64,000 nucleotides of DNA from a phage. Below are positions 2,249 through 45,653 of this stretch, in pieces. Below the pieces are notes generated by a model. The model worked only from the letters and a program-made list of their open reading frames with translations, did not search any database and was not told where the DNA came from. The stretch's first letter is position 1. The number at the start of each line of letters is the position of its first letter. The position numbers and the translations under genes were made by a program. The stretch is from the sequence record PX930852.1. One strand, given 5' to 3'.

Positions 2249-2514
2249 TTCCTCGTTTTAAGAACTGCTAAGATTTCTTTAGAGTCTGGTAAGAACCATG
2301 TGTAGTGATTCTCTTTGATTTCTGGATGAGTGTCAACCTTTATTTTGCACTCTTTACCAACATGCTTAAGCTGTGCTGTGACACCTTGCATAAAGATATG
2401 ACACATCACGTTGTCCATAATGGTTGGTGAGAAATCAACACGCATATAAGTTTCTTTTGGTCGTGGTAGTAGTAAGTACCCTTCTACATAGAAAGTGTCT
2501 TCATTCTCTGTCAT
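2245..2514 (-). CDS. Hypothetical protein
   Basis: ORF with 4-bp stop/start overlaps to neighbours. Confidence 0.35.
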   Translation of the reverse strand: MTENEDTFYVEGYLLLPRPKETYMRVDFSPTIMDNVMCHIFMQGVTAQLKHVGKECKIKVDTHPEIKENHYTWFLPDSKEILAVLKTRK

Positions 2515-2780
2515 TGCTGTTTGTTTCCTAATAAAATCATATCAATAAGGTTATTAGCTTTGATTGTGCACTGGTAAAAGCCGTCACGATAGAACTCAAG
2601 GGCTGCTGCTACATCGCTGCCTGTGTTGCCTTTGATGATATACCGTGATTCTTCTTGGGTGTACTTATCACCCTCACTTACTTGGGAGTTTTTGAATGTA
2701 CTGCTCACTTTGTTCGTTGAACACCCTGACATAGTTATCAGTAACACAAACATTATAAAACTCTGGCTTAGTTTTTTCAT
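2511..2780 (-). CDS. Predicted lipoprotein; candidate outer-membrane spanin (Rz1-like)
   Basis: N-terminal signal with lipobox-like LITMSGC; gene starts inside the 3' end of the upstream membrane-protein gene in another frame. Confidence 0.4.
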   Translation of the reverse strand: MKKLSQSFIMFVLLITMSGCSTNKVSSTFKNSQVSEGDKYTQEESRYIIKGNTGSDVAAALEFYRDGFYQCTIKANNLIDMILLGNKQQ

Positions 2781-3021
2781 ATGTTAGTACCTCTTTTGTA
2801 TGCTTATTCTTAGCAAGCACATCTTTCAAATCATTTTTGTAATTGGTGCTGAGTGTGGCTAAACCTTCCTGATAAGCATCTTTAGCAACACTTATTAGTT
2901 TCTCATTATTTAGCTCAGTTTCAGCAACTTGATAGTCTCTGTAAGAGTATCCTCCCCAGACACCTGCACCAACTAAGAAAACAATTATGAAAGTAGCTTG
3001 ACAGAACTCTTTAAATGTCAT
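2674..3021 (-). CDS. Membrane protein with N-terminal TM helix and helical periplasmic region; candidate inner-membrane spanin (Rz-like)
   Basis: TM segment FIIVFLVGAGVWGGY followed by charged helical sequence; overlapped by the lipoprotein gene. Confidence 0.4.
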   Translation of the reverse strand: MTFKEFCQATFIIVFLVGAGVWGGYSYRDYQVAETELNNEKLISVAKDAYQEGLATLSTNYKNDLKDVLAKNKHTKEVLTYEKTKPEFYNVCVTDNYVRVFNEQSEQYIQKLPSK

Positions 3022-29917: not shown

Positions 29918-30113
29918 ATACTTTAAAGCTTTTTAAAAGCTATTAAATAATCTTTTAAGAATTTTAAAGTATCTGTATAGTTAAACTGTTAAGTAACCTT
30001 TTAAGTAAAAACCCACTTCGCAAAGATTAACACCTTGTCAAGTGCATTGTCAACTTGCTTTTTATAATTTTTTGCAGTAATGTATGAGGTTAATGATTTT
30101 AGAGGGAGTAAAA

Positions 30114-32813
30114 ATGGAAAACGTAGATTTTAAAAACTTACATTTAGTTGGTGATACAGAAACTGATGGTTTACTCCTTGAGTTCACTAAAGTGCACGTA
30201 ATGGCTTTCGCAGACTATAAATCTGACGATGAAGAGCCACCTGTATGGGTCTTTACGGATGAACCTATCCTCGGTCACAAGTATACCAAGTACATTAAGG
30301 GTGGCTTACGTGAAGGTGTTGAATTTGCGTTAAAGGCAAAACGTCTTTGCATCCATAACGGTCTCGGTTATGACTGGTGGGTTTTTAATCACATTGCACC
30401 TGATTTATGGAACTTTGATAATCCAAAGTGTAAGCCGTGGAGTAATTTCTTTCAGGATTCTCTTATCCAGTCTCGTGTTCAGTGGATGGATAGACCAACT
30501 CCAAAGGGTTATAAAGGTGCTCATGGCTTGGCTGCATGGGGTGCTCGTGTTGGTGTTCGTAAGCCAGAGATTGAGCATTGGGGTGTGTGGAATGCAGAAA
30601 TCTTCACTCGTGTTGTAGAAGATATCCGTATTAACGCCAAAACTAAACGGGCACTTGATAACGAGTATCTCAAGCTTAAGAAGTGTGGCATAGACACTTA
30701 TGAAACTTACATGCGAGCTAAAGAAACATCTTTCTGGATGAGTCAACAAGCTATCAATGGTTGGAAAGCTGATAAAGAGCTTATGGAGTTCCATGTAAAG
30801 GAGCTTGACAAGTTGACTAATGAGCTTGCTTCAGAGGTTGAACCACATCTACCTCCAACTATTAAGACCAAAGGTAAAGTCACTGGAGAAGAGTTTGCAA
30901 AAGCTTGGAATGAGTATGTTGAAACATTTGGTCATGCAGATGGACTGAAAAGAATTACCAAGTACCCTAAGACAAAGTATCGTCAGCAGGTACGTAATGG
31001 TGAGATGCAGACATACGAAATCAAACCATTTGGTAAGCCAACTACAAAGATTTTTAACATTGAAAAGAGAAATTGCTATACACCAACCAACTCTGTAACT
31101 GGTGAAGAGTACAAGGAAGGCTTTGTAGCAATGAAGGATGCTCGTGCAATTTGCAATGAGTTGAACGCAAAGATTGGTAAGAAATGCAAAGACTGGAAGC
31201 CAGTAAAAACAGTCAAAACTGTGAAGTACTATAACAGCCACGTTGTTAACCACTTTGAACTTGAGTCAAGTCGCTACACAGGTTTGATTGATGCACCATA
31301 TACACCAATTGAGTTTGAAGTTTCTCGTATGACTCAGGTAGCAGTTGTTAAAGACTACTTGAAATCAGTTGGTTGGATTCCAGATGACTGGAACTACAAG
31401 AAAGACTCAGATGGTCGCCCTGTCAAAGTTTGTCGTTTCAAAGACAATAAAAAGATGATTACAAAACATCCTAAGTGGCAGGAGATGGTGGAACGATGTG
31501 GTTTAAGTTATGTTGAACATGAAGGTGTCCAGTACATTGAGCATAACTGGTCTGTGAAGAAGTACACAGATTTGCTTGAGCCTTGCTTAATCCGTACTTC
31601 ACCAAAACTTACTGAATCATCTTATGATACGATTGAAGGTGAGCTTGGACAGAAGATTGCTAAGTACTATACTTTGATGCACCGACGCAGAACTATTGAG
31701 AACTCAAAGGATGATGAAAAAGGTTGGTTGAACCAGATTCGTCCTGATGGTCGCCTTAGTGCTGGTGCAATGGTGTTCGGTACTTCAACTGGACGTATGA
31801 CGCAATATGGTATTGTAAACGTACCGTCTGGTGCTGCTGTCTATGGGGAACCAATGAGGGCAGTGTGGATTTGTGAGGAAGGTACTAACGTTGTCTCTGT
31901 AGATATGAACTCTGCCCAGCTAGTTCTTCTTTGTAACTTTATGGGTGATAAAGACTTCACCAAAGCGGTAACGCAAGGTAAAGAAGAAATTGAGTTCATT
32001 CGTCAAGAAGATGGACGCTATTACTGCAAACACTTTGATGAGTACCTCAACCCAGAGATTGATAAGTACCTTCGCTATGACTCTGAGAATGACCTGTACG
32101 TTGTTTATTCAGGGACTGATGCACATACACTGAACAGTATCTACTTTAGCTTGAATGATGAGCAGGATATCTTGACTTGTCGAGCTACTCAGGATGAGAA
32201 TCTTCTTCATGAGATTAGCAAAGGTCGTAAGAAAGCTAAGAATGGTATCTATGCACTACTGTTCGGTGCAGGGGATGAGAAGTTTGCTAAGACGATTAAA
32301 GCTGCAACTACTCAGGAAGGCGCACTGACTAAACAGACTTATTTTATTCGTTTGCCTAAAATTAAGAAGCTGTTAGATGACTTGGAAGCTGACTACAAAG
32401 CAACTAAAAAGGCACTTGAAGAGGTGTTTGGTAAGACTGCTGCAATCTCTAAAGGGGGTTTTGTAAAGGTTGCTGGAGCTTGGTTGTGGTGTAAATCTCC
32501 ACACAAACTGTTGAACTACCTTTTGATGGGTTCAGAGGCCCAGATTCAAAATGAGGCAATTAACCTTGCTTGTCGTCGCATGATTGACGAAGGGTTGATG
32601 AAGCTAAATGGGCGTAAACCAGCTATAGGTGCTCGTTTGCTCTGCGCATATCACGATGAAACAAGTTGGGAATGCCCAGAAAGTATGACGGCAGAAGTGA
32701 AAGCAGTTACTGACTGGTATTATGGACAAGCTTCTAAAAACTTAGGTCTTAAGAAAGAAACACTTGTTACAGGTACTGGTAAGGTTGGTAAAAGCTGGCT
32801 TGAAGTACACTAA
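30114..32813 (+). CDS. DNA polymerase, family A, with 3'-5' exonuclease domain
   Basis: Exo motif LHLVGDTETDGL; polymerase motifs VSVDMNSAQL (A), RKKAKNGIYALLFGAG (B), CAYHDETSWE (C); start set at ATG 30114 after GAGGGAG RBS. Confidence 0.85.
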   Translation: MENVDFKNLHLVGDTETDGLLLEFTKVHVMAFADYKSDDEEPPVWVFTDEPILGHKYTKYIKGGLREGVEFALKAKRLCIHNGLGYDWWVFNHIAPDLWNFDNPKCKPWSNFFQDSLIQSRVQWMDRPTPKGYKGAHGLAAWGARVGVRKPEIEHWGVWNAEIFTRVVEDIRINAKTKRALDNEYLKLKKCGIDTYETYMRAKETSFWMSQQAINGWKADKELMEFHVKELDKLTNELASEVEPHLPPTIKTKGKVTGEEFAKAWNEYVETFGHADGLKRITKYPKTKYRQQVRNGEMQTYEIKPFGKPTTKIFNIEKRNCYTPTNSVTGEEYKEGFVAMKDARAICNELNAKIGKKCKDWKPVKTVKTVKYYNSHVVNHFELESSRYTGLIDAPYTPIEFEVSRMTQVAVVKDYLKSVGWIPDDWNYKKDSDGRPVKVCRFKDNKKMITKHPKWQEMVERCGLSYVEHEGVQYIEHNWSVKKYTDLLEPCLIRTSPKLTESSYDTIEGELGQKIAKYYTLMHRRRTIENSKDDEKGWLNQIRPDGRLSAGAMVFGTSTGRMTQYGIVNVPSGAAVYGEPMRAVWICEEGTNVVSVDMNSAQLVLLCNFMGDKDFTKAVTQGKEEIEFIRQEDGRYYCKHFDEYLNPEIDKYLRYDSENDLYVVYSGTDAHTLNSIYFSLNDEQDILTCRATQDENLLHEISKGRKKAKNGIYALLFGAGDEKFAKTIKAATTQEGALTKQTYFIRLPKIKKLLDDLEADYKATKKALEEVFGKTAAISKGGFVKVAGAWLWCKSPHKLLNYLLMGSEAQIQNEAINLACRRMIDEGLMKLNGRKPAIGARLLCAYHDETSWECPESMTAEVKAVTDWYYGQASKNLGLKKETLVTGTGKVGKSWLEVH

Positions 32814-32874
32814 TTAGTATTGACAAGGTGCTCATGGAAGAGTACCTTATACTGTATCTTATATAGGAGGGCTT

Positions 32875-33084
32875 ATGAGCCATCGTGGAAGAACCCATGC
32901 AGCGATGATGAAAGGTGCTTCAAAGGAGACTATCAAAAATCGTAAGCAGAAGTTGTTTGAGAGAATGAACAGGTTAATTGACAATTCATCTCTTTCAGGT
33001 TCTGAGAAGGTTTTCTTGAAAGGTAATCTGAAAAGCATTGCACAAGAACTTATTGACATTGAGTATTGGAGACATCAAAAATGA
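32875..33084 (+). CDS. Hypothetical protein
   Basis: ORF with strong RBS (TAGGAGGG). Confidence 0.4.
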   Translation: MSHRGRTHAAMMKGASKETIKNRKQKLFERMNRLIDNSSLSGSEKVFLKGNLKSIAQELIDIEYWRHQK

Positions 33085-33299
33085 CACTTGCAGACGTTAT
33101 TCAGCAACTTCACGACAACTGCTATACTCCAGAGTTGATTCAGGAGATGTGTATTGTAGTGATGCCTAGCAAGTTCGTAAAAGCCTTTAACAGTGACACT
33201 TTAAGGTCTGCACACATTCTTATTGTTGAAGGTAAGATTGCAAAAGACCGTACTGGAGTACTCAAAGGTGAGCGTATTGATATTCTGGAGTTGCTATGA
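33081..33299 (+). CDS. Hypothetical protein
   Basis: ATGA start/stop overlap with the upstream gene. Confidence 0.4.
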   Translation: MTLADVIQQLHDNCYTPELIQEMCIVVMPSKFVKAFNSDTLRSAHILIVEGKIAKDRTGVLKGERIDILELL

Positions 33300-33565
33300 A
33301 GAAAATGTACAGTCTCTGGGGAAGTATTATGTGGAAAGCAGTAATTGCGCTTGGTGTTGTTTTTCTATCTGGCTGCAACCCTTCTTATGAAGATAAAAAT
33401 GCTTCTTACAGTCTCCCACCAGAGATGCAAGATTGCAGAGTATACAAGTTACATGGTGATGCTATAAGCAGAGATATTGTTGTTGTCAGATGTCCAAACT
33501 CCCAAACAACAACATCTTATAGCTATGGCAAAAATGGTCAATCACACACTACGGTTATTGAGTGA
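33296..33565 (+). CDS. Predicted lipoprotein
   Basis: Signal peptide with lipobox VVFLSGC. Confidence 0.5.
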   Translation: MKKMYSLWGSIMWKAVIALGVVFLSGCNPSYEDKNASYSLPPEMQDCRVYKLHGDAISRDIVVVRCPNSQTTTSYSYGKNGQSHTTVIE

Positions 33566-33575
33566 GGGTTTCACG

Positions 33576-33782
33576 ATGGAAGTCCTAGTAAACTATATCT
33601 ATTGTTATGATGTTGTTCACTCTACTACAACGGTAGCTCAACGTAACCCAATCGTCCCACGAGAAGGTGAGTTGGTTCGCATTGATGGTTGGACTTACAC
33701 TGTGGAAAGCATCATTCATAAGTTTGATGTTGCTGGTGATGTTCAAGTTATTGACGTAGAAATTGGTGGTAAGAGAAAATGA
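33576..33782 (+). CDS. Hypothetical protein
   Basis: Start set at internal ATG 33576 preceded by GAGGG. Confidence 0.35.
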   Translation: MEVLVNYIYCYDVVHSTTTVAQRNPIVPREGELVRIDGWTYTVESIIHKFDVAGDVQVIDVEIGGKRK

Positions 33783-34132
33783 AATCTAAGCAAACAATGG
33801 CAGATGCAATCTTCACAGTACACAGTTTCGAAAGGTTGCGCATCAAAGATGCAAAGGATACCCCAAAATGCGTTGTACATTTTATTAAAAGGCGTAGTAA
33901 CATGTCCTATATGAAATCTGACAAAGGCAATAGCACAAATGAATAAAGAAGACAAGCATAAAAATGCTGTATGAACTCCTGATGGAAAGGTTCAATCCTT
34001 CATTCTGACAGTTGGTGGAAAACCATTTCGTTGTCACTGCGGAGCGAACTGTTTTCATAAACCAGATAAAAATGACTTAGAGCTTTACGCATGTAATGCT
34101 TGCAACACTTGGTATCACTCAGAGGATTGATT

Positions 34133-34657
34133 ATGATTGACAATAGGCGCAGAAATATAATCATCAAAAACTTCCGCGAAGTGTCTCAAAATTTAAGGTT
34201 AGATGATGTCAGACTTAGGAAATCTTGGTATGACATAAAGGTATTAGAATATTCTAAAAATCAGCCAATTAAGTTATCTATCTTAGAACATTGGTATACA
34301 AACTTTGCAACACCTGAAAATCATAATAAATTATACAAAAACTATGTAGATATTTGTAAAAAGTTTGGTGTAGCAATAGTCGACGACAGTATTGGATTGC
34401 TTTATGACCTGTACACAAGGTTCTCTGAATATGCTTTTAATGTTCAGTTCAAGAACTACTTAAAGTATGATGATGGTTCATTAAAGTTGTACAACTATGG
34501 TTATGGAAAACTAGCCTGCAAACAAGATGATGGTTCTTTTATAGACTTCTACACAGGGGTTTTTGTGTACTTACCTGAACAGTGTATGTCACTATCTGGG
34601 TTAGCAGTCTCACAATTTGGTATCTTTATTCCAGTAAAATCACACATGCTAAGGTAA
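34133..34657 (+). CDS. Hypothetical protein
   Basis: Start set at ATG 34133 after AGAGGA RBS. Confidence 0.35.
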   Translation: MIDNRRRNIIIKNFREVSQNLRLDDVRLRKSWYDIKVLEYSKNQPIKLSILEHWYTNFATPENHNKLYKNYVDICKKFGVAIVDDSIGLLYDLYTRFSEYAFNVQFKNYLKYDDGSLKLYNYGYGKLACKQDDGSFIDFYTGVFVYLPEQCMSLSGLAVSQFGIFIPVKSHMLR

Positions 34658-34662
34658 TTTGA

Positions 34663-35763
34663 ATGACAATTCTGTACAAACAAAATAAAGACGGTTCCTT
34701 CAACGTCTGGTCATGCGTTGCTGTAGGTGACAAAGTTATTACAACCTACGGTAAAGAAAATGGCAAGATGATGTTTGAAGAGTATACAGCAGAGCCTAAA
34801 AACATCGGTAAAAAGAATGAGCGTAACGCTGAACAGCAAGCCCTCTTTGAAGTTGCTGCTAAGTATAAAAAGCAAGTTGACCGCAAAGGTTATGCTTACA
34901 CAAAAGAGTCTGCACAGAATACTGAGAAGGTAGGTGTACAGCTTGCTCATGATGCTGCAAAGGTTAGTCATGCAAAGTATCTGAAGTTCCCTGCTGATGC
35001 TCAACCAAAACTTGATGGTGTCCGTTGTAGAATTTCAAGAGATGCTGATGCAGTCAGTTTCACAGCTTATTCTCGTGAGAATACTGTTTACAACGTTCCA
35101 ACAGAACTAATCCCAGATTTGCTTTTGTTGCTTAAATTACATCCGCAAGTTGAAGACTTTGACGGAGAGATTTATGCTCATGGTTGGGACTTAGAAGATA
35201 TTGTATCTATGATTAAGAATGCTGACAATCCAGACCGTCACCTTCTTAAATTCTACTGGTATGATATCTGTGACAATTCAAAATCTTGGCCTGAGCGTCG
35301 TGAAGTTATTGATAACTCACCTATTGTTGAGCTTGGGGATACCTGTAGAGTTGTTCCTGTACAGACTATCCGTGTAAATTCTTGGGAAGAGTTTGATGAA
35401 GCTCATGATAAGTGGGTTGAAGCTAAGTTTGAAGGTGCAATGTACCGTTCAATCTCTGAAGACTCCTTCTATGAGTGTTGTCACCGTTCATACTTCTTGA
35501 TTAAGCACAAGAAGATGCACACTGAAGAGTTTAAAGTGACTGGTGTAAAGACCGATAAGCGTGGTCATGGTAAGTTCGTTGTAGAGACTCTTCCTAACGT
35601 CTTTGTAGATGTTTCATGGAAAACTACACACGAGAAGAAACAGTATCTTGCTGAACATCCTGAAGAGTTTATCGGGAAACCTTTAACTGTTCAGTTCCAG
35701 AAGATGACTCGTAAAGGTTCTTTACAGTTTCCTGTAGGGCTAGTTATTAGGGATTATGAGTAA
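34663..35763 (+). CDS. ATP-dependent DNA ligase
   Basis: Adenylation motif I PKLDGVRC (KxDGxR), FDGEIYA (III), EGAMYRS (IV), LIKHKKM (V). Confidence 0.7.
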   Translation: MTILYKQNKDGSFNVWSCVAVGDKVITTYGKENGKMMFEEYTAEPKNIGKKNERNAEQQALFEVAAKYKKQVDRKGYAYTKESAQNTEKVGVQLAHDAAKVSHAKYLKFPADAQPKLDGVRCRISRDADAVSFTAYSRENTVYNVPTELIPDLLLLLKLHPQVEDFDGEIYAHGWDLEDIVSMIKNADNPDRHLLKFYWYDICDNSKSWPERREVIDNSPIVELGDTCRVVPVQTIRVNSWEEFDEAHDKWVEAKFEGAMYRSISEDSFYECCHRSYFLIKHKKMHTEEFKVTGVKTDKRGHGKFVVETLPNVFVDVSWKTTHEKKQYLAEHPEEFIGKPLTVQFQKMTRKGSLQFPVGLVIRDYE

Positions 35764-35919: not shown

Positions 35920-35947
35920 TTGACATAGGAAATTTGGTGAGTATACT
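35920..35947 (+). promoter_or_regulatory. Sigma70-type promoter (TTGACA-N16-TATACT)
   Basis: Consensus -35 at 35920-35925 and near-consensus -10 at 35942-35947. Confidence 0.5.
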
Positions 35948-35974
35948 GAGCATCATAAACCAACGGGTACTCAC

Positions 35975-36290
35975 CAGCATCACTTAAGAGTCTTTGAAAA
36001 GGGTTTTTAAGTGATGTAATGCGTGGCTCGGTGCAGTGAAGTATGGTGGGGTAGGGTATAATATGGTGCGGTAATGTATGGGTAGTTAGTCTCAGCTACA
36101 TTAAAATGAGACTTACCTTTTTAAAAGGTCTTTGGAGAGGGTCTTTTAATAAGGTCTGGTGTAGTAGGGTTGGGCATGGTACGGTCCGGTGTGGTGTGGC
36201 ACGGTATGGGTGGATGGTAGTATCCACGTTAAAAATCTACCAAGTTTCTAAAGAGTCTTCTGTTGAGGGTTCTTTACAAACAACTTAACA
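35975..36290. repeat. Repeat-dense non-coding island A: G-rich GGT-periodic arrays, conserved hairpin and direct-repeat element
   Basis: Hairpin AGTCTCAGCTACATTAAAATGAGACT at 36088-36113; element TTAAAAGGTCTTTGGAGAGGGTCTTTTAA at 36117-36154; GGTNN-periodic tracts at 36020-36085 and 36155-36225. Confidence 0.6.
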
Positions 36291-36299
36291 ATCAACTAA

Positions 36300-36905
<606 letters not shown>

Positions 36906-37348: not shown

Positions 37349-37360
37349 GTTGACTAGGTA

Positions 37361-37383
37361 GCCTCTTCGGAGGCTCCTTTTTA
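37361..37383 (+). terminator. Rho-independent terminator (GCCTC-TTCG-GAGGC plus T-run)
   Basis: Stem-loop followed by TCCTTTTT directly after the 36908..37348 stop. Confidence 0.55.
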
Positions 37384-42034: not shown

Positions 42035-44419
42035 TTAAGCAGTTCTTACCCAAGCCATTAACTTGTAGAACTGGTTAGTAACACTGAATGCTGAACCAGA
42101 ACCTGTACCACCAGTGTTACCACTAACTGTATGAGTGTGAGCACCGATACCTACAGAGTGGGTGTGAGCACCAGTGTTACTTGTAGTACCAGACCATGTG
42201 TGTGTATGGTTACCAGTTGTGTTAGTGTTAGGGAATTTGTTATCTTTTCTATCAAGCCAGTCAAGAGTTCTTGTCTTGCTGTTGCTAACAGTTGTGTAAC
42301 CATACTGAGCATCACCACCATTAACCAATAGCAGACCTAAGTGGTGAGCATGGTTACCCGCAGCACTTGTTGTACCACTTACAGTGTGGGTGTGACCACC
42401 AGTACTATTAGTGCTCTTCGTACCATAATCAAAAGATGAAGTGGTAGCAGAGAAGCTGTGAGTGTGTGATGGTAAGTTACCAACAGCTAATGTTACAGAA
42501 TCTGAACCACCAGTTGTAGCAACATCTGAACCGTTAGCTGCTGCGATTCTGATAGTTCTACCAACACCATTGTTCAGGTACGTCCAAGTTAACCCAGGCA
42601 ACGCTGTGTTAGGGTCAACATTACTGTTAAACCACGTTACAATGCCTACTGGATAGATTTTATTAAGGTCTGTAGAGTCACTAATTGCTGTTGCAATTTT
42701 CTGGTCAGTTTCAGCTTTAGTGTATGCACCAATATCTGAAGGGGTTGGTTTAAAATCAGTTGTATAAAGTTGTGCTTCTCCGGCATAGTCACCATTTTTG
42801 TCATAGGCATAGGTGAATGTTGCCAGACCGTTTGAACCGTATACAAAAGAGATACCCCTTGCATGTGCAGCAGACTTACTAGAGTGAGCAACATGAATTG
42901 CCAACTCTTTCAGACCACTAGTCACACTGTTGTTTCTGACAAAACCTGAATATCCAAGATTAAATGCTGAAGGGTTTTCAAGGTTATCTACAGAGACAGT
43001 CATTAAGGATTGATTTAATAACTGAGTTTTAACAAAATATCTAGCATCTAAGTTAGACCAATCAGAAGGTTGTACTTGACCAGTAATTGTTAGATTCTTA
43101 TTAGCCTTAATCGCTGAGGACATAAGAGTAATTTGAGTCCCAGAGTAGCTGTTGTTTAATGCTACATCAGTAGAATTTGTGCCACCCACACCTACCCACC
43201 ACCTAGATACATTCTGGGTATCAACACCACGGATATATTGTGGCTGTCCCTGTGTTAAGTTTCTTAATACTACGCCTTCATTATTTGATACAATAGTTTG
43301 CACATTCACAAATGTGTTAGCAACATTAAGTTTAGGTAGGTTACTCAAAGTTGCTGCTGGGATGTATCTAGAGTCAATGTTAGCCCAATCTGAAGGTTGA
43401 ACTTGACCAGTGATTCTGAAGTCCTTGTTTACTGCGACATGACCATTGTCAAGTCTAAGATAAGAACCATACACATAGTTGCTGATGAATACAGCAGGTG
43501 TATTATCACCATTTCCTACATACCACTTACCAGAACCATCATTAGCTTCGGCTTTAACGTATAGTGCAGCATTTGCTACAGTATTTTTCAACCTTAAAGC
43601 AGCACTGTCACTAATAATAAGTAGGTTTCTGCTAAACGTGTTAGTGCCAGTGAAATTGTTATTAGCAGCTAACTGTGCAAATCTCTGATTAGCAACTGTC
43701 TGTGTGAAGTATCTAGCATCTAAGTTAGAGAAGTCAGAAGGTTGGACTTGACCAGTGATTCTAAGTGTTTTACTGATAGCAGCAACACTAGACAGATTCA
43801 CTTCACAACCTGTCTTGTAGTTGTGGATAATAACATCATCATTCCCTGAACCATTACCTACATACCACCTATTAGCACCAGTGCTGTCCTGACCTCTAAT
43901 ATACAACGGTGAGTTCTCAGAAGAATTTTTTAGTCTAATAGCTTCGCCATTTGCTTGAATAACCTGTTGGAAGGTAAAGATGTTATTTGCAGCTAATCTT
44001 GAGTATCTTGCATCATTCTCTTCATTAGTTCTCATCCCAAGCTCATTAGGACTTGGCTTATTCAGGGTATGATAAACAGTTGCCGACCTTGAAGCATCTG
44101 CAATAGTTAGCTTAAGACCGTTTGCGTTAATTTTAAAAGTCTTTAAAACATCCCCAATATTAATCTCAGAAGAGCCTGTAGGGTCAAATACTGTCTTACC
44201 ACCATAAAGTAACTTAACAATACCTAAATCACCCGTCATGGTACTACCAATAATCTGAACAAATCTCTCAAGCTTAAAAGATGCTAAGAAATCTTGATAG
44301 GTCATTCGACGGTCTTCATCACCCAGCATTTCAGGTCTCTTTTTAACTCTGACATGAAGAAGGTCATCTGAACGGATTGTATCGATTGAGTTTAATTCAC
44401 TCAACTTGTAATCTGCCAT
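42035..44419 (-). CDS. Tail fibre protein with three internal repeats and His-rich C-terminal tip
   Basis: Triplicated ITGQVQPSD(W/F)(S/A)N(L/I)D(A/S)RY units; C-terminal GxHxH repeats (HTHS, HTHT, NHAHH); terminal WVRTA. Confidence 0.65.
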   Translation of the reverse strand: MADYKLSELNSIDTIRSDDLLHVRVKKRPEMLGDEDRRMTYQDFLASFKLERFVQIIGSTMTGDLGIVKLLYGGKTVFDPTGSSEINIGDVLKTFKINANGLKLTIADASRSATVYHTLNKPSPNELGMRTNEENDARYSRLAANNIFTFQQVIQANGEAIRLKNSSENSPLYIRGQDSTGANRWYVGNGSGNDDVIIHNYKTGCEVNLSSVAAISKTLRITGQVQPSDFSNLDARYFTQTVANQRFAQLAANNNFTGTNTFSRNLLIISDSAALRLKNTVANAALYVKAEANDGSGKWYVGNGDNTPAVFISNYVYGSYLRLDNGHVAVNKDFRITGQVQPSDWANIDSRYIPAATLSNLPKLNVANTFVNVQTIVSNNEGVVLRNLTQGQPQYIRGVDTQNVSRWWVGVGGTNSTDVALNNSYSGTQITLMSSAIKANKNLTITGQVQPSDWSNLDARYFVKTQLLNQSLMTVSVDNLENPSAFNLGYSGFVRNNSVTSGLKELAIHVAHSSKSAAHARGISFVYGSNGLATFTYAYDKNGDYAGEAQLYTTDFKPTPSDIGAYTKAETDQKIATAISDSTDLNKIYPVGIVTWFNSNVDPNTALPGLTWTYLNNGVGRTIRIAAANGSDVATTGGSDSVTLAVGNLPSHTHSFSATTSSFDYGTKSTNSTGGHTHTVSGTTSAAGNHAHHLGLLLVNGGDAQYGYTTVSNSKTRTLDWLDRKDNKFPNTNTTGNHTHTWSGTTSNTGAHTHSVGIGAHTHTVSGNTGGTGSGSAFSVTNQFYKLMAWVRTA

Positions 44420-44439
44420 TATAAATTTTCCTCTTAAAA

Positions 44440-44455
44440 GGGGCTATAAAGCCCC
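44440..44455 (-). promoter_or_regulatory. Conserved GGGGCT-loop-AGCCCC stem-loop between the two tail fibre genes
   Basis: Same stem as hairpins at 6031-6048 and 10804-10819, each just upstream of a gene start on the minus strand. Confidence 0.4.
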
Positions 44456-44465
44456 TGTAAAGAAA

Positions 44466-45653
44466 TTAAGCTGTTCTCTGCCATACATACAGCACGAATG
44501 ATGGCTGCTCAATGTTGAAAGCTTGTCCACCACCAACACTATTAGTGTTTCCACTATGTGTATGCTCAGAAGAAGAAACTGCCACAGTACCATTGTGTGT
44601 GTGTGAACCAATACCAACTGTATGGCTATGAGCACCAATACCCACCGTATGATTATGGTTACCAGTTGTGTTAGTGGTAACGCTAAAAGAGTGGGTGTGC
44701 GAACCAGCGACTTCACAGACAGCATCTGCTGAGTACCATGATTGGTCATTTCTTGTAGACCAAACCATTGCAGGTCTCTCCGATAGGCCACCACCCGCTT
44801 CATAGGTCAATCTGTGGTTGTGAGCACCAGCAGCACTTGTTGACCCACTACCAACGTGATTGTGGTTACCAGTTGTGTTAGTAGTCTTTGTTCCATAGTC
44901 AAAAGAGTTGGTAGTCTTAGTCCCATAGTCAAAAGCTGAAATTGAAACAGTTGCATTATGAGTGTGACCACCACCACTAAGAGATACAGAGTGTGAGTGT
45001 TGAGGCATGTTATTAACTGACAAAGTGACAGTCGAAGCACCAAATACAGAACCTGCTGGCCTTGTATCAGAGTCATAGCCAACCAATGCCCTACCTTTTG
45101 AAACCAACTCCCAAGTACCTCCACAAATTAAGTATGTAGAAGGGTTTGCAGAGTTCATAGAAAGATGGATAGTACCTACTGGATAAGAAGCCTGAACAGC
45201 CTTGTACAAGTTATTTACTGCTCTTGCTGTAGCATACTTATCTGCATCTTCATTATACAGGTTAGATGTTGTCCAGTTCTGAACATTACTTAAACCAACC
45301 TGTGCCTTAGTTGTATTGTGTGGGTTACTCTTGTCCTTGATATGTTGCTGAACAAGGTTATTAACCTCTTCTGAAGACATAATCTGTAGATTTGCTCTTG
45401 CCTCAGCTACATTAACAATATCTGATAAGTTATTTGCAGCGACTAACTGAAGAGCATTAATAACGTTATCTAAACCAATTTGTGTTTTAGTCACACCATG
45501 AGGGTTATTTCTTAGGCTTGAGTGTGGAGCAAGTAATTGCTCAAGAGTACATCTCTTATCCTCAATACCCTGCTTAAGATGGAAGATATCACTAAGGTCA
45601 ATTGGTAAGGCTGCTTGAGGCAAGGCACTAATTTGAATTTCACCTACCGCCAT
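44466..45653 (-). CDS. Tail fibre protein with His-rich (GxHxH) C-terminal tip
   Basis: Multiple HTH/NHNH/HSH repeats and terminal WQRTA homologous to the C-terminus of the 794-aa fibre. Confidence 0.65.
   Translation of the reverse strand: MAVGEIQISALPQAALPIDLSDIFHLKQGIEDKRCTLEQLLAPHSSLRNNPHGVTKTQIGLDNVINALQLVAANNLSDIVNVAEARANLQIMSSEEVNNLVQQHIKDKSNPHNTTKAQVGLSNVQNWTTSNLYNEDADKYATARAVNNLYKAVQASYPVGTIHLSMNSANPSTYLICGGTWELVSKGRALVGYDSDTRPAGSVFGASTVTLSVNNMPQHSHSVSLSGGGHTHNATVSISAFDYGTKTTNSFDYGTKTTNTTGNHNHVGSGSTSAAGAHNHRLTYEAGGGLSERPAMVWSTRNDQSWYSADAVCEVAGSHTHSFSVTTNTTGNHNHTVGIGAHSHTVGIGSHTHNGTVAVSSSEHTHSGNTNSVGGGQAFNIEQPSFVLYVWQRTA

Follow-up and report, generated by a model that had tools for sequence, protein, structure and literature searches.

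The gene at 33296-33565 (+) of the phage sequence record PX930852.1, a 64,000-nt stretch of DNA referred to here as the window, encodes, judging from its sequence, a lipoprotein precursor that belongs to a very large, phage-restricted and uncharacterised family and that is under strong purifying selection. The gene is constrained yet accessory, and the family is a catalogued orphan, not a new kind of system. The evidence argues against a masking of the phage's own receptor in the manner of T5 Llp, while the protein may act in superinfection exclusion by a route other than receptor blocking. We tentatively favour a standalone periplasmic effector with a conserved envelope target, for which the most likely role would be post-adsorption protection of the infected cell, this estimate applying to the two parts jointly. 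In addition, the analysis corrects the start codon and the gene model, and it excludes the spanin and the Llp readings.

Gene model and start codons

The 89-aa ORF with a canonical lipobox that had been described originally was confirmed in the window, but its length turned out to be the product of a deletion, and the start typical of the family lies further downstream. Its ATG at 33296 overlaps the stop codon of the upstream ORF 33066-33299 (ATGA), an alignment of homologues places the start of most of them at the equivalent of ATG 33329, and both ATGs are preceded by Shine-Dalgarno-like sequences (Table 1). DNA alignment of the window with Ro111lw and Bas63 revealed that ~127 bp are absent from the window, with the deletion junction at ~33320-33324, and that the deletion takes out most of a small upstream gene, the homologue of bas63_0043 (an ORF of 48-58 aa), of which nine codons are left. 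Therefore, both the 89-aa length and the N-terminal extension result from the fusion of the neighbour's start onto the lipoprotein ORF. LMP25 and LMP34 share the deletion allele, which was also seen on 91 contigs, each as long as a phage genome. GenBank already lists the identical 89-aa protein under phage vB_EcoM_LMP25, where it is called a 'hypothetical protein'. After cleavage before Cys27, an identical 63-aa mature protein would be expected from both starts.

Table 1. Coordinates of the lipoprotein gene, its elements and the spanin genes in the window
Feature	Position	Strand	Description
ORF as flagged	33296..33565	+	89 aa plus stop; exact protein in GenBank (LMP25)
ORF from the family-typical start	33329..33565	+	78 aa, MWKAV...; equivalent of bas63_0042 in Bas63
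Nine leftover codons, MKKMYSLWG	33296..33322	+	5' end of the bas63_0043 homologue, fused in frame to the lipoprotein ORF
Shine-Dalgarno-like GGAG	33287..33290	+	5 nt before ATG 33296; read from the sequence
Shine-Dalgarno-like GGGGAAG	33318..33324	+	4 nt before ATG 33329; the Bas63 equivalent is GGAGAAG
Lipobox L24-S25-G26-C27	33365..33376	+	Cys27 is the predicted lipid-modified first mature residue, followed by Asn-Pro
Mature domain	33374..33562	+	63 aa; ~20-residue tether, then a predicted small beta domain of ~five strands (AlphaFold2 model and alignments)
Cys47	33434..33436	+	Invariant in the family; putative disulfide half
Motif V-V-R-C66-P-N-S	33482..33502	+	Most conserved stretch of the family; Cys66 putatively pairs with Cys47
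Rz-like i-spanin	2674-3021	-	phrog_1152, E = 8e-42
o-spanin lipoprotein ORF, MKKLSQSFIMFVLLITMSGC...	2511-2780	-	phrog_4180 ('unknown function' in PHROGs); overlaps the i-spanin 3' end by 107 nt

Lipoprotein signals and predicted location

Lipoproteins were recognised by a positively charged N-terminal region, a hydrophobic region and a lipobox of the form [LVI][ASTVI][GAS]C, and all three are present in the window protein, wherein the signal peptide MKKMYSLWGSIMWKAVIALGVVF precedes the lipobox; from the 78-aa start, the signal peptide reads MWK-AVIALGVVF-LSGC. When the lipobox filter was applied to all window ORFs of 40-250 aa, just the flagged ORF, with three nested starts, and the o-spanin ORF were returned. 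Among the retrieved family members, 208 of 212 have a lipobox, and Pfam LPAM_1 matches nine members of the family. Therefore, the lipobox is unlikely to have arisen by chance, and the lipoprotein assignment made in the original prediction is borne out by the signal peptide, the lipobox and its retention among the homologues.

In E. coli, an Asn at position +2 after the lipid-modified cysteine predicts sorting to the outer membrane by the Lol rule, while in Enterobacterales an Asp at this position confers Lol avoidance and leads to inner-membrane retention. The +2 residue is Asn in the Felixounaviruses, Glu in the Vibrio phages, and Ser or Asn in the Acinetobacter phages, Thr also occurs in the family, and it is Asp in A5-4, PBECO4, FKP3 and BF (52 of the 208 members overall). 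By this rule, the Felixounavirus protein is predicted to reach the outer membrane and the Asp+2 members to stay in the inner one. In rare members (P0069 and P0071), the place of the lipobox is taken by a plain signal peptide or by a membrane anchor. Given that the lipobox is replaceable in these members and that the +2 residue varies, it is the periplasmic location, and not a particular membrane, that looks constant.

Size, spread and conservation of the family

The window protein matches the PHROG family phrog_902, of unknown function, over residues 11-87 (E = 7e-17). Nearly all homologues, including one that is 93% identical, carry a precomputed assignment to PF16225 (DUF4884) at E <= 1e-5, and the GenBank name 'DUF4884 domain-containing protein' has been used for a small phage protein (PMC12210894). 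However, a local Pfam-A hmmscan of the window protein and 64 relatives reported PF16225 for none of them, and the DUF4884 label is therefore taken as unconfirmed; the discrepancy is probably a difference of version or library. Membership in DUF4884/phrog_902 by itself explains nothing, because the family has no known function. Searches of the protein and of the 64 relatives with Pfam-A, NCBIfam and PADLOC yielded sub-threshold noise (SIR2_2, ThsA and Zn_ribbon_InsA) in addition to LPAM_1. Literature searches on Felixounavirus lipoproteins, PF16225, phrog_902, DUF4884 and Llp with Felix O1 returned no functional study, and gp42 is not discussed in the accessible part of the text of the Bas63 gene-essentiality study (PhageMaP).

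When 1.84 billion representative proteins were searched with the family profile, 1262 clusters (50% identity) were retrieved at E <= 1e-3, 720 of them at E <= 1e-10, and all of the 150 matches listed of the 1262 clusters are 71-154 aa long. Exactly two further cysteines occur in 182 of the 212 retrieved members. In the family alignments, C47 and C66 are invariant and P67, N68, G78 and K79 nearly so; the consensus core is Y-x-L-P-x-G-L-x-D-C-K-x-Y ... V-V-R-C-P-N-S-x-T, with a conserved D-C-K-(I/V)-Y segment, and this core recurs in phages that infect Vibrio, Aeromonas, Acinetobacter, Serratia and Klebsiella. By tblastn, the gene was located in 585 phage records, 295 of which are of Vibrio phages, the two examined among these being T5-like Demerecviridae. 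Its other carriers comprise the Felixounaviruses, Aeromonas Plateaulakevirus, Vequintavirinae (rV5-like), Justusliebigvirus (phi92-like), the jumbo phages Serratia BF, Yersinia fHe-Yen9-03 and E. coli PBECO4, and Acinetobacter phages including the T4-like Acj61. Among 185,579 representative genomes of bacteria and archaea, no relative was found by a scan with the single protein, which is sensitive to close relatives only.

AlphaFold2 produced a poor model of the full precursor (pLDDT 57); for the mature domain with a 150-sequence alignment, it returned ~five beta strands with a pLDDT of 68.6 and a pTM of 0.48 (model m3e7a41ade95b). The predicted fold is thus a compact beta domain, in which Cys47 and Cys66 may form an intramolecular pair. 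Foldseek with this moderate-confidence model detected nothing significant in the PDB (best E 1.4), and in BFVD it recovered uncharacterised family members plus two Aeromonas phage proteins ('Aeh1 lipoprotein' and a phiAS5 protein). Searching the PDB with the single sequence gave no match, and with the family profile an unusable best E of 0.56.

Genomic setting

The window comes from a Felixounavirus. Its region 32800-34700 has counterparts in 259 phage records, with 88-96% nucleotide identity, and almost all of these records are Felixounavirus, namely Felix O1-like myophages that infect Escherichia, Salmonella, Shigella and Citrobacter; both Felix O1 and Bas63 carry the lipoprotein gene. The gene lies in a co-directional plus-strand block that runs from the DNA polymerase gene (30084-32813) through small ORFs to the DNA ligase gene (34663-35763). 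Two small ORFs stand between the polymerase gene and the lipoprotein ORF, and the description of the gene as just downstream of the polymerase among small genes is correct. Its placement in the early region also holds in that it lies in the replication (early/middle) module, where the timing of expression is read from gene position only. The number of sites returned by a scan for promoters and terminators did not exceed the chance expectation, and none was convincing for the gene itself, which is packed between the polymerase and ligase genes.

Across the 12 loci examined, the window included, the gene stands alone among small early or replication genes and not beside a receptor-binding gene; in several of the 10 other lineages, the nearby annotations are origin-binding protein, ligase, polynucleotide kinase, primase and nucleotidyltransferase. 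A conserved partner gene was sought by all-against-all BLAST of the ORFs of 11 loci, and no other family was common across the lineages. Therefore, the gene travels, and presumably works, alone. No cell-wall hydrolase gene, with which the lipoprotein could have formed an inhibitor-enzyme pair, was found near it among the ORFs scanned.

Selection and dispensability

The median dN/dS in the mature region is 0.054, as calculated over 156 pairs with dS > 0.1 among 22 Felixounavirus alleles. At a threshold of at least 60% identity, the gene is present in ~196 of the ~259 Felixounavirus records and is apparently missing from about a quarter of them. Two Logan assemblies (P0012 and P0013) contain 64-aa alleles with a frameshift after residue 45-46, by which Cys66 and the C-terminal half are lost; these alleles are either pseudogenes or assembly errors. 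Taking together the records that lack the gene and the frameshifted alleles, the gene appears dispensable.

A standalone periplasmic effector as the favoured explanation

Based on these findings, we propose, as the leading though still tentative explanation, that the protein acts alone in the periplasm on a conserved component of the host envelope and protects the infected cell after adsorption. As its gene position suggests, the lipoprotein would be made early or in mid-infection together with the replication genes, and it would then be exported, acylated at Cys27 and held on the periplasmic face of a membrane, which in the Felixounaviruses is predicted from Asn+2 to be the inner leaflet of the outer membrane. 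The beta domain, probably stabilised by a Cys47-Cys66 disulfide, would by itself bind an envelope or periplasmic component conserved across Gammaproteobacteria, and secondary infections or envelope damage might thereby be excluded, much as is done by T4 Spackle/Imm or TP-J34 Ltp.

Several features would be consistent with such an effector, namely the lipobox and the two further cysteines (208 and 182 of 212 members, respectively), with C47 and C66 invariant and P67 nearly so, the spread of the 1262 clusters over unrelated lytic phage groups, the lack of covariation with the fibre tips, the lack of a neighbour common to 11 loci, and a +2 residue that differs even among Enterobacterales phages (N vs D). 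The dN/dS of 0.054 fits a constrained protein with a conserved target. Against the explanation stand the lack of a structural analogue, at a model confidence that is moderate, the apparent absence of the gene from about a quarter of the Felixounavirus records, and the existence of frameshifted alleles. Additionally, the family may have several targets, since the variable +2 residue implies different membranes and, with the short tether, is hard to fit to one membrane-proximal target.

A hint of an exclusion role comes from Acj61 (L040 4956-5546), wherein 27 bp separate the family member Acj61p058 from the spackle gene sp downstream of it, whose product is an exclusion protein of the periplasm. 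Such guilt by association is weak, coming from a single case in a hypervariable region, and at the corresponding position T4 has the unrelated gene 61.4, which does not encode a lipoprotein. T4 Spackle (Sp) and the window protein are both small early periplasmic proteins encoded near replication genes, whereas the Sp sequence, unlike the window protein, lacks a lipobox. T4 Sp is helical. Homology between the two was rejected, as neither the PHROG nor the Pfam results included a Spackle family and the two are separate adjacent genes in Acj61.

It is rather unlikely that the protein instead serves as an envelope shield or in counter-defence, inhibiting a conserved periplasmic enzyme, an incoming toxin or an envelope stress sensor and so keeping the cell intact until lysis, with, for example, lytic transglycosylases, lysozymes, peptidoglycan-targeting type VI effectors or colicins as candidate targets. 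The conservation of the core across many Gammaproteobacteria phages under strong purifying selection would suit a conserved enzyme target, and the protein would be periplasmic whatever the anchor, encoded by a gene that is standalone and accessory. However, Pfam, NCBIfam and PADLOC searches and PDB sequence and fold searches found nothing significant to lysozyme inhibitors or immunity proteins. Identity with a lysozyme-inhibitor lipoprotein (MliC/PliC and similar) was rejected on the lack of a Pfam match and of a PDB fold match, the fold test being weak because the model is only moderately confident.

Receptor masking, a disfavoured reading

In the original prediction, the lipoprotein was likened to T5 Llp and Cor-like proteins, which typically block the phage's own receptor. 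By this reading, to which Rtp45 may be added as a further model, an outer-membrane lipoprotein in the inner leaflet clamps the receptor of its own phage, or LptDE, and blocks further virions on infected cells or debris; we consider it improbable. The format is indeed shared, in that the mature protein is a lipoprotein of ~6-7 kDa with two cysteines encoded by a single gene, and its Asn+2 would direct it to the outer membrane in E. coli. T5 Llp has, like the window protein, a type II signal peptide, two cysteines and a mature domain of similar length (~62 aa), and its synthesis is reported to begin soon after infection. Phage Rtp has Rtp45 as its exclusion lipoprotein, which is likewise small (~6 kDa) and binds LptDE, a conserved essential envelope machine and a target relevant to an LPS-dependent phage (PMC12685063).

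Beyond this format, the resemblance does not extend to sequence, fold or gene order. The hhalign probability between T5 Llp and the family profile is 72% with the signal peptide and 0.6% for the mature sequence, and the former value is discounted because the match rests on the signal peptide; the alignment with Rtp45 is likewise confined to the signal peptide, and homology to both was rejected. PDB sequence, profile and fold searches for an Rtp45-like structure gave nothing usable, in copies that may not include 9RPS. The Cor type was assessed through a PHROG search with the window protein, in which no exclusion-annotated PHROG was matched. The cysteine spacing differs as well, with C26...C73 in T5 Llp and C47...C66 in the window protein. 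Furthermore, llp is divergently transcribed from the receptor-binding gene oad, and rtp45 adjoins tail-tip and receptor-binding genes, whereas the window gene sits in the replication module, 8.5 kb from the fibre genes (42035-45653, minus strand), which belong to another module on the other strand; nor does a receptor-binding gene adjoin it in the 11 other loci.

Masking proteins are expected to track the receptor-binding protein, and the window lipoprotein does not. The lipoprotein of the window phage shares 94% identity with that of Bas63, whereas the long tail fibres share 61% and the short tail fibres 75%. In several Felixounaviruses, among them ST11, O157 typing phage 15 and Sf13, the long fibre has no detectable similarity to that of the window over its distal 130 residues, and the lipoprotein is 74-94% identical; over several Felixounaviruses with long-tail-fibre tips that are 61% identical or replaced it remains 74-100% identical. 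Receptor masking is therefore disfavoured, since the protein keeps its sequence when the fibre tips are exchanged. The occurrence of the same core in phages of very different hosts, and of Asp+2, the inner-membrane retention signal, in many members also speaks against it. Additionally, Bas63 is reported to be LPS-dependent (PMC12609058), which leaves a periplasmic lipoprotein without a known protein receptor on which to act. Of the first interpretation, the lipoprotein, its place in the replication module and its not being half of a spanin pair were upheld, while the receptor blocking of the Llp/Cor type was not.

Returning to the favoured effector, a bolder form of it, which we regard as doubtful, is that a disulfide-locked beta domain passed horizontally among phages binds one conserved, possibly essential envelope machine of Gammaproteobacteria, which could be LptDE, BAM, Lol, Tol-Pal or a peptidoglycan enzyme. 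If true, this pan-phage protein would represent a receptor-independent general exclusion or envelope takeover and a natural ligand for a drug target. Llp, Cor and Rtp45 each showed how a 6-kDa protein in the periplasm can shut down a large machine of the outer membrane, and the DUF4884-labelled family is far more widespread than these; a conserved envelope target, if confirmed, would make this a general strategy of lytic phages without receptor dependence. Felixounaviruses are used in biocontrol, where cross-exclusion between the members of a cocktail would matter. If the gene is dispensable with a narrow effect, it would be an ordinary hypothetical gene. Its breadth and conservation make the family a reasonable experimental target.

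Lysis and gene decay as improbable readings

Most annotated lipoproteins of lytic phages are o-spanins, and the periplasmic antiholin RI of T4 offers a further precedent for a role in lysis, be it as an antiholin, as another component akin to an o-spanin or in the control of lysis timing. Such a role is nevertheless very improbable here. A complete spanin pair in overlapped arrangement is already present at 2511-3021 (-), 30 kb from the lipoprotein gene, one partner of which is assigned as the o-spanin because of its lipobox and its overlap with the Rz-like i-spanin (Table 1). The claim that no spanin partner lies near the flagged gene is correct, and no hydrophobic membrane-spanning stretch is visible on reading in the flanking ORFs 33066-33299 and 33576-33782. 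The window protein resembles the Rz1-type o-spanins as a predicted phage outer-membrane lipoprotein of similar length, but the former has no partner i-spanin and is distinguished by its predicted compact beta domain with a putative cysteine pair. An o-spanin identity was therefore rejected, as no i-spanin adjoins or overlaps the gene, no partner is conserved and the phage has its own pair elsewhere. Against a lysis role of any kind stand also the location of the gene in the replication module, with no holin or endolysin gene beside it in the loci examined, and the Asp+2 members, which are predicted not to reach the outer membrane.

That the ORF is a chance one or a decaying non-functional gene, as the frameshifted alleles P0012 and P0013 and its apparent absence from roughly a quarter of the Felixounavirus records might suggest, has a negligible probability and is effectively refuted by the dN/dS of 0.05, by the 1262 homologous clusters with conserved lipobox and cysteines, and by identical or near-identical copies in hundreds of genomes.

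Further observations on the region

In Serratia phage BF (L004 2780-3228), the lipoprotein gene overlaps the stop codon of a 69-aa 'membrane protein' with two hydrophobic segments; no equivalent of this neighbour occurs in the other lineages examined. In the window, the stretch 33779-34657 (+) between the lipoprotein cluster and the ligase gene is mosaic and contains a 55-aa ORF (phrog_25478) and a 185-aa ORF, the latter with no Pfam or PHROG match, and at this place Bas63 has a 72-aa cysteine-rich ORF, bas63_0040, instead. At least 80% of 32800-34700 is covered by just 5 of the 259 Felixounavirus records.

Among the matches to the region, one record is named Staphylococcus, and MG065668.1 ('Campylobacter phage A126', 43 kb) shows ~89% nucleotide identity to the window region; these Campylobacter- and Staphylococcus-named records are probably mislabelled or contaminated assemblies. 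The best sigma-70-like promoter of the region lies just after the ligase gene at 35920-35947 (+), with TTGACA and TATACT separated by 16 nt (11 of 12 positions), and it was reported together with an ORF-poor gap at 35964-36302 and a terminator-like hairpin at 37360-37375. This promoter and the hairpin may mark the boundary of a transcription unit.
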